NCBI RefSeq assembly: GCF_016026235.1
Contig: NZ_CP065613.1
Length of the DNA: 64,000 bases
Strand: one strand, 5' to 3'
Source: Escherichia coli
GTDB lineage: Bacteria; Pseudomonadota; Gammaproteobacteria; Enterobacterales; Enterobacteriaceae
Below the pieces are notes generated by a model that ran no database searches, was not told where the DNA came from, and saw only the letters and a list, made by a program, of their open reading frames with translations. Position 1 is the stretch's first letter; each line of letters begins with the position of its first letter. Made by a program: the position numbers and the translations under genes. This document shows, in pieces, positions 2,055-2,130 of the stretch.

Positions 2055-2130
2055 TGGTGGCCCTTGCTGGATTTGAACCAGCGACCTGGCGATTATGAGT
2101 CGCTCGCTCTCACCACTGAGCTAAAGGGCC
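2055..2130 (-). tRNA. Phage-encoded tRNA, anticodon CAU (Ile2/lysidine-type or Met), 76 nt with encoded CCA
   Basis: Reverse complement GGCCCTTTAGCTCAGTGGTGAGAGCGAGCGACTCATAATCGCCAGGTCGCTGGTTCAAATCCAGCAAGGGCCACCA folds as cloverleaf: 7-bp acceptor stem, D-arm GCTC/GAGC, anticodon loop CUCAUAA, T-arm GCTGG/CCAGC with TTCAAAT loop; closely resembles enterobacterial ileX-type tRNA. Confidence 0.85.

Follow-up and report, generated by a model that had tools for sequence, protein, structure and literature searches.

An ileZ-type tRNA-Ile2 gene, intact by sequence, in a defective prophage of Escherichia coli

A prophage at the start of a 64,000-nucleotide stretch of an Escherichia coli genome (contig NZ_CP065613.1 of RefSeq assembly GCF_016026235.1; this whole 64-kb stretch is called the window below) carries a tRNA gene with a CAU anticodon at positions 2055 to 2130 on the minus strand. 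Judged by its sequence, the gene is an intact copy of ileZ, a phage gene that is already known, and the phage counterpart of the E. coli genes ileX and ileY. ARAGORN and Rfam identify it as a tRNA gene, its assignment as tRNA-Ile2 draws on 100% identity to ileZ and on the pairs C4:G69 and C5:G68, and we consider it very probable that the product functions in the manner of the ileX and ileY tRNAs, which read AUA once their anticodon has been modified.

The original prediction, made from the letters of the window, had described a tRNA whose anticodon is CAU and whose CCA end is encoded, and both programs as well as the sequence itself agree with it, with the minus strand as a new detail. The only tRNA that ARAGORN finds in the whole window occupies 2055-2130 of the minus strand and has the anticodon CAT at position 34. 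The Rfam tRNA model RF00005 matches 2130-2058 (minus) with 72.5 bits, where the gathering score is 29 (E = 6.3e-14), and the same model gives 73.1 bits for ileX and 73.8 bits for ileY, both functional genes of K-12. With a score so close to theirs, the covariance model gives no hint of a pseudo-tRNA. The CCA 3' end is encoded at window positions 2057-2055 (minus strand), and the anticodon loop is CUCAUAA, a loop of 7 nucleotides in which U33 and A37 accompany the CAU. The acceptor stem reads GGCCCUU/AAGGGCC and thereby provides the pairs C4:G69 and C5:G68 in addition to G1-C72, and the anticodon stem reads AGCGA/UCGCC. Only one irregularity is flagged in the Rfam alignment, an A.C at 27:43.

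The decisive question for a CAU tRNA is whether it belongs to isoleucine or methionine, and here we compared the gene with the K-12 CAU tRNAs of three classes, all taken from NC_000913.3. The gene is identical to ileY at 70 of 76 positions (92.1%) and to ileX at 68 of 76 (89.5%), against 52 of 77 (67.5%) for the elongator genes metT/metU and 46 of 77 (59.7%) for the initiator metZ. The reading as an elongator or initiator tRNA-Met would have in its favor that ARAGORN labels the gene tRNA-Met and that several phage records give identical copies the same name. These labels arise because the anticodon alone was used, and anticodon-only labels are unable to separate the CAU tRNA classes (PMC8450103). 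The sequence itself differs from metT at 25 positions and from the initiator at 31, and from ileY at only 6. In addition, the gene holds C4:G69 and C5:G68, which according to accounts of the mutagenesis by Ikeuchi et al. are direct contacts and the dominant identity elements of the E. coli enzyme TilS (PMC12514573, PMC11947777), whereas metT has U4:A69 and A5:U68 at these positions. We did not find the marks of an initiator in the gene, namely a C1xA72 mismatch and three G-C pairs in a row at the base of the anticodon stem; its first pair is G1-C72, and the run of three is missing. A methionine tRNA is therefore next to inconceivable, and the proposal that this is the minor isoleucine tRNA, neither elongator nor initiator tRNA-Met, gains support both from the identities and from the presence of the TilS pairs that the original prediction had suggested examining.

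The annotation of other genomes points in the same direction. Sequence-identical copies in RefSeq genomes carry the label tRNA-Ile, as do all the identical copies among the matches listed, and the RefSeq pipeline labels tRNAs with tRNAscan-SE. Version 2 of that program has its own Ile2 model, with approximately 1% of cases misclassified (PMC8450103). For annotation practice, this means that anticodon-only tools such as ARAGORN, together with many phage records, mislabel the gene, for which tRNA-Ile2 is the proper label. The determinants of isoleucyl-tRNA synthetase (IleRS) outside the anticodon that Nureki et al. reportedly described in 1994, namely A73, A37, A38, C29-G41 and U12-A23, are all present in the tRNA.

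The gene is widespread. Over its full length (76/76 nucleotides) it is identical to ileZ of the Shiga toxin (Stx) phage Lahn2, where argN (UCG) and argO (UCU) follow, and to a tRNA-Ile of O157:H7 that immediately precedes two tRNA-Arg genes and stx2A; it is also 100% identical to the tRNA-Ile of a prophage in E. coli 042. Copies at an identity of at least 99% occur in 278 phage records, mostly of Stx2-converting phages, and at least one copy is present in 3,056 of the 5,426 complete genomes of E. coli, with a maximum of 12 copies in one genome. A tRNA of the ileX-like kind near stx2 is attributed to Schmidt et al. 1997 where that work is cited in PMC3636060, and phages of the 933W type have three tRNA genes (PMC4631060). 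As a discovery the gene is of small value, since over half of the complete E. coli genomes carry it and, going by that citation, the identical phage tRNA was reported beside stx2 in 1997. A literature search on ileZ returned no relevant paper, and the history of ileZ as told here comes in part from citations inside PMC3636060. Direct placement of tRNA genes after Q is described for SfI, Sf6, ST64T, PS3 and P21, with a rare-codon rationale proposed (PMC3636060). These descriptions, together with the identity to the Lahn2 and O157:H7 copies, agree with the statement in the original prediction that lambdoid phages often have such tRNAs at the Q-S junction.

Set beside the ileZ-argN-argO module of Stx and lambdoid phages, the window has the same ileZ sequence, the same conserved element of 42 nucleotides upstream of it, and the same map position, between the late-gene activator region and the lysis genes. 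Unlike that module, it has kept only one tRNA, since its argN is degenerate and cut and its argO is deleted; what the window retains is a remnant of the module, with no functional tRNA-Arg downstream. It also differs from the Stx phages in its cargo. No stx gene was found in the window near the tRNA module, which is accompanied there by an STnc100 small RNA match, an IraM-like moron and a DUF1737 open reading frame (ORF). The gene upstream differs as well, being a lambda-type Q of 273 amino acids in the window, a short q of 144 amino acids in Lahn2 and a DNA methyltransferase gene elsewhere. The last arrangement is seen in a related yecE prophage of the enteroinvasive E. coli (EIEC) strain RMDEC332, where a cluster of Ile(CAU), Arg(UCU), Thr(UGU) and Gly(UCC) tRNAs follows a DNA methyltransferase gene (positions 4269-4578 of sequence L003). 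With K-12 ileX and ileY the gene shares the anticodon, the acceptor-stem determinants, the length, the CCA and an Rfam score on a par, and it differs from ileY by six fixed positions, by A.C instead of G.U at 27:43, and in being prophage-borne. The T-even tRNA-Ile (CAU) and the tRNA-Ile of P1/P7 are similar in the CAU, in the GGCCC start of the acceptor stem and in a non-Watson-Crick 27:43 pair; however, they reach only 80-86% identity and belong to a tRNA cluster of virulent phages or to the P7 plasmid-prophage, with no Q-lysis junction. Finally, the tRNAs of SfI, Sf6, ST64T, PS3 and P21 share the position after Q and the rare-codon rationale (PMC3636060), yet they are tRNA-Asn(GUU) and tRNA-Thr(UGU) rather than tRNA-Ile2.

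The location between a Q-like gene and the lysis cassette, as originally described, is confirmed by the order of Q (3095-2274), the tRNA (2130-2055) and a holin (590-375), all on the minus strand. The Q gene encodes an antiterminator of 273 amino acids (Pfam Antiterm PF03589, E = 6e-55). Six nucleotides past its stop codon, a reading of the sequence gives a candidate pR'-like late promoter at 2268-2241 (minus), composed of TTGATT, a 16-nucleotide spacer and the extended -10 motif TGgTAAATT; the late promoter of lambda likewise sits right after Q. A terminator scan places a terminator-like hairpin followed by a T-run at 2166-2193 (minus), a candidate of the tR' type, with a stem-loop at 2193-2174 made of 7 pairs (5 of them G-C), a loop of 6 and the tail TTTTTATT. 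By analogy with lambda pR'-tR', this hairpin may be the terminator that Q-modified RNA polymerase reads through. The tRNA had been placed between Q and such a hairpin, which needs amending: the strongest hairpin (2193-2174) precedes the tRNA in the direction of transcription and separates it from Q, and it is a second hairpin (1735-1714) that lies downstream.

Right after the T-run, approximately 42 nucleotides upstream of the tRNA are conserved although the DNA farther upstream varies. This element follows Q and a terminator in the window and in 733R4, it follows a DNA methyltransferase gene in EIEC RMDEC332 and in an O157 Stx2a phage, and it stands upstream of ileY in K-12. Its conservation across these contexts suggests that it contains the tRNA's own promoter. 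From the sequence and its conservation, we place a candidate at 2140-2168 (minus), with a -35 of TTGCGG (2168-2163), a 17-nucleotide spacer and a -10 of TATTAT (2145-2140), which ends 9 nucleotides before position 1 of the tRNA.

The prophage around the gene is decayed. The Q-tRNA region is shared with E. coli 042 and phage mEp460 at more than 99% identity, and compared with both the window is 706 bp shorter here: BLAST aligns window positions 1201-2005 with 2552-3356 of the 042 sequence (L001), and 1998-3200 with 4062-5264. The two segments overlap by an 8-bp repeat, GGTTGTTG, at 1998-2005, which is the signature of a deletion through microhomology. Lost with it were the gene for a tRNA-Arg(UCU) and the greater part of a DUF3927 ORF, and the deletion also cut an argN-like gene and ends 50 nucleotides from the tRNA. 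Alignment with ileZ-argN-argO of Lahn2 and with E. coli 042 identifies 1998-2047 (minus) as the 5' half of this argN-like gene, a degenerate pseudo-tRNA. In 042 and mEp460 it is already degenerate, with matching acceptor ends and CCA around a scrambled interior, and ARAGORN makes no call on the full-length argN-like gene of either. The deletion junction was not found in one piece among 5,426 complete E. coli genomes, and it was found in 4 IMG/VR contigs. One of these contigs is 99.96% identical to window positions 24-4753 and has no IS600 in the helicase gene, and therefore the deletion is real, was inherited and predates that insertion.

Three copies of the insertion sequence IS600, 99.8% identical to annotated IS600, lie at 4751-6020, 15821-17084 and 19413-20676. 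The first breaks the gene of the replicative helicase, the second a gene with an SPFH domain and the third the integrase gene. Because the helicase and integrase genes are interrupted, the prophage is defective. The best E. coli matches are enteroinvasive strains, with a coverage of only 82%, and the host chromosome is therefore probably of a Shigella or EIEC type. The integrase gene (18253-19425, cut by IS600, with the remainder reaching to approximately 20833) abuts yecE (DUF72, ~20815-21585), which is followed by yecN, cmoA and cmoB. The tRNA lies 18.7 kb from this integrase/yecE junction and has phage genes on both flanks. We considered the tRNA as the attachment site of the prophage and ruled it out, given that the integrase abuts yecE at ~20.8 kb; the view that the attachment site is at yecE is thus upheld.

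A proposed selected function of this phage-borne tRNA-Ile2 gene is the supply of a rare codon, and AUA usage in the prophage is in keeping with this. We counted codons in greedily chosen ORFs of the window, with IS600 left out of the prophage set. The prophage ORFs hold 61 ATA in 4,590 codons (13.3 per 1000, 21% of the isoleucine codons) and the host ORFs hold 60 in 12,500 (4.8 per 1000, 8% of the isoleucine codons), a difference with an odds ratio of 2.8 and P = 4e-8; AGA and AGG together amount to 17.0 per 1000 in the prophage and 3.5 per 1000 in the host. The IraM-like moron is extremely rich in AUA, with 6 ATA in 110 codons (54.5 per 1000, 46% of its isoleucine codons). Since the late genes lie beyond the window, we used the annotated prophage of E. 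coli 042, the closest complete relative, which has the same Q-tRNA module, in their place, and there the region of lysis genes and small terminase shows 15.5 ATA per 1000 and the early genes 10.8 per 1000. Overall, we favor codon supply as the selected function, with moderate confidence.

Several observations weigh against this reading of the gene as a functional source of AUA decoding. The structural late genes of the 042 prophage have only 5.1 ATA per 1000, a value at the level of the host, and therefore a benefit for virion production is unsupported. The proposal that the tRNA supplies AUA decoding to late or moron genes consequently stands in part, for the lysis, early and moron genes in which the excess is found, and falls for the structural late genes. 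The excess of AUA and AGA/AGG is a general trait of AT-richer acquired DNA and no proof of selection for a tRNA, and codon adaptation is no better in lambdoid phages that have these tRNAs than in those that lack them (PMC4631060). With the prophage defective, a function of the tRNA at the level of the phage is moot in the present genome. A consensus promoter scan of 1600-2400 gave no site, both promoter candidates, which were assigned by position and conservation only, being below its threshold; the -35 of the candidate tRNA promoter matches the consensus at only 3 of 6 positions. Finally, the minimum free energy fold of the unmodified tRNA differs from the cloverleaf (-33.5 kcal/mol, as compared with -29.0 kcal/mol for the latter), a result that is uninformative because the functional ileX, ileY and metT likewise lack the cloverleaf as their minimum free energy fold.

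Some of these same observations could be read to mean that the gene is an intact-looking but functionless relic of a dead prophage, either silent or adding nothing beyond ileX and ileY, whose decay is pending. IS600 has inserted three times, into the genes of the helicase and the integrase and into a third site, the deletion that ends so near took the partner tRNA-Arg, the neighboring argN-like gene is degenerate already in relatives, and no promoter scored above threshold. We regard a relic as unlikely, since the 76 nucleotides match, without a single difference, the copies that active Stx phages and thousands of genomes carry, and since both the tRNA and the conserved 42-nucleotide element upstream have been spared by the deletion and the insertion elements. 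Moreover, the flanks of ileY in K-12 are homologous to those of the prophage gene, which indicates that a module of this kind can be maintained on the chromosome as a tRNA gene.

The six positions that separate the gene from ileY are G20, G26, A27, C43, A44 and A59. The A.C pair at 27:43 could be taken as a sign of gene decay, which we ruled out because it is fixed in thousands of copies, because the tRNA-Ile of T2 has the identical A27.C43 and A44, and because none of the Ile2-type tRNAs compared has a Watson-Crick pair at 27:43 (G.U in ileX and ileY and G.A in P7, with C-G in metT). The top of the anticodon stem accounts for four of these six differences (26/27/43/44), and with T2 sharing A27.C43 and A44 one may ask whether the tRNA serves counter-defense rather than codon supply, as a phage variant that resists a tRNA-cleaving nuclease or replaces a tRNA lost to one. 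The P2 OLD tRNase cuts after nucleotides 27-29, an effect that phage-encoded tRNAs relieve, and tRNA-Ile2 is absent from the tRNAs that OLD is reported to deplete (bioRxiv 10.64898/2026.07.10.737580). The related yecE prophage carries two OLD targets, Thr(UGU) and Gly(UCC), beside its copy of ileZ. We know of no nuclease that targets tRNA-Ile2, which counts against counter-defense, and the classical companions of the module read AGA (UCU) and CGA (UCG), of which AGA is over-used in prophage genes as AUA is; this again fits codon supply. A role in counter-defense instead of codon supply is thus highly improbable, and scarcely less so is the more specific idea that the A27.C43 variant with G26/A44 was selected to survive, or to replace tRNA lost to, nucleases of the OLD or PARIS kind that cleave the anticodon stem. 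If true, such selection would also explain why the tRNA alone has stayed intact in an otherwise decayed prophage.

Returning to codon supply, the anatomy of the region suggests how the gene would work. Transcription would start from the short conserved promoter-like element directly upstream of the tRNA, and after induction the tRNA would also be part of a late transcript that begins just past Q and passes through the hairpin at 2193-2174 by means of Q-modified polymerase. The precursor would then be trimmed to the encoded CCA end, trimming to CCA being established processing of tRNA precursors. The host enzyme TilS would read C4:G69 and C5:G68 and convert C34 to lysidine, which would switch the tRNA from methionyl-tRNA synthetase and AUG to IleRS and AUA, so that it is predicted to be charged with isoleucine. 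The additional tRNA would raise the decoding capacity for AUA, for the AUA-rich phage and moron genes. As the tRNA-Arg(UCU) is deleted and three IS600 copies have inserted, any present benefit would be to the host and the resident AT-rich genes and not to phage growth.

The surroundings of the gene hold further features. Q matches the solved antiterminator chains 7UBM_Q, 4MO1 and 7UBJ in two blocks (residues 1-113 and 182-273), and this alignment implies an insertion of approximately 65 residues with a CxxC zinc-ribbon-like segment that resembles the CXXCXGXG of DnaJ. A classification of Q as phage-82 type was considered and dropped, as the structure-sequence search matches the 207-amino-acid Q of 7UBM/4MO1, which we take to be lambda Q. 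On the strand of the late transcript and just downstream of the tRNA module, Rfam model RF02076 gives an STnc100 small RNA match at 1894-1705 (minus; 132.4 bits) that has its own terminator hairpin in the terminator scan (1735-1714). Beyond it lie the IraM-like anti-adapter moron at 1344-1679 on the plus strand (NCBIfam NF007393, 162 bits; annotated as IraM in E. coli 042), the DUF1737 ORF, and the class II (P21 S-type) holin at which the lysis cassette starts (Pfam PF04971, E = 1.5e-32). Past the holin, a DUF1327/YdfR gene extends off the edge of the window.

Farther away, the early or immunity region of the prophage contains adjacent Rfam matches to C4 antisense RNA (9008-9094, minus, 83 bits) and to the Hfq-binding RNA isrK (9119-9195, minus, 64 bits). 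In the E. coli 042 relative (L009 16355-28898), a second integrase-bearing element lies within the large terminase gene of the prophage; it has its own capsid, portal and terminase and a satellite-like look. The host chromosome within the window gives Rfam small RNA matches to MicL (27811-28118, minus, 370 bits), C0465 (44460-44537, plus, 112 bits) and ES036/CssrF (23832-23874, plus, 45.5 bits).

The broader meaning of the gene comes from its resemblance to a resident tRNA gene of the host. The flanks of K-12 ileY (NC_000913.3, 2785762-2785837) share the upstream element of ~40 nucleotides with the prophage module, and downstream of ileY we observe pieces of a degenerate argN-like pseudo-tRNA (TATCAGGAAGAG and GGGTaCtCGATGGCGGTCtAT). 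With the upstream element and the pseudo-argN pieces in common, K-12 ileY looks, by sequence comparison, like a fossil of the phage ileZ-argN module. Together, the piecemeal decay of a tRNA cluster in which ileZ has stayed intact and the apparent ileY fossil suggest that this phage tRNA can be retained as a host gene, which is of modest evolutionary interest.

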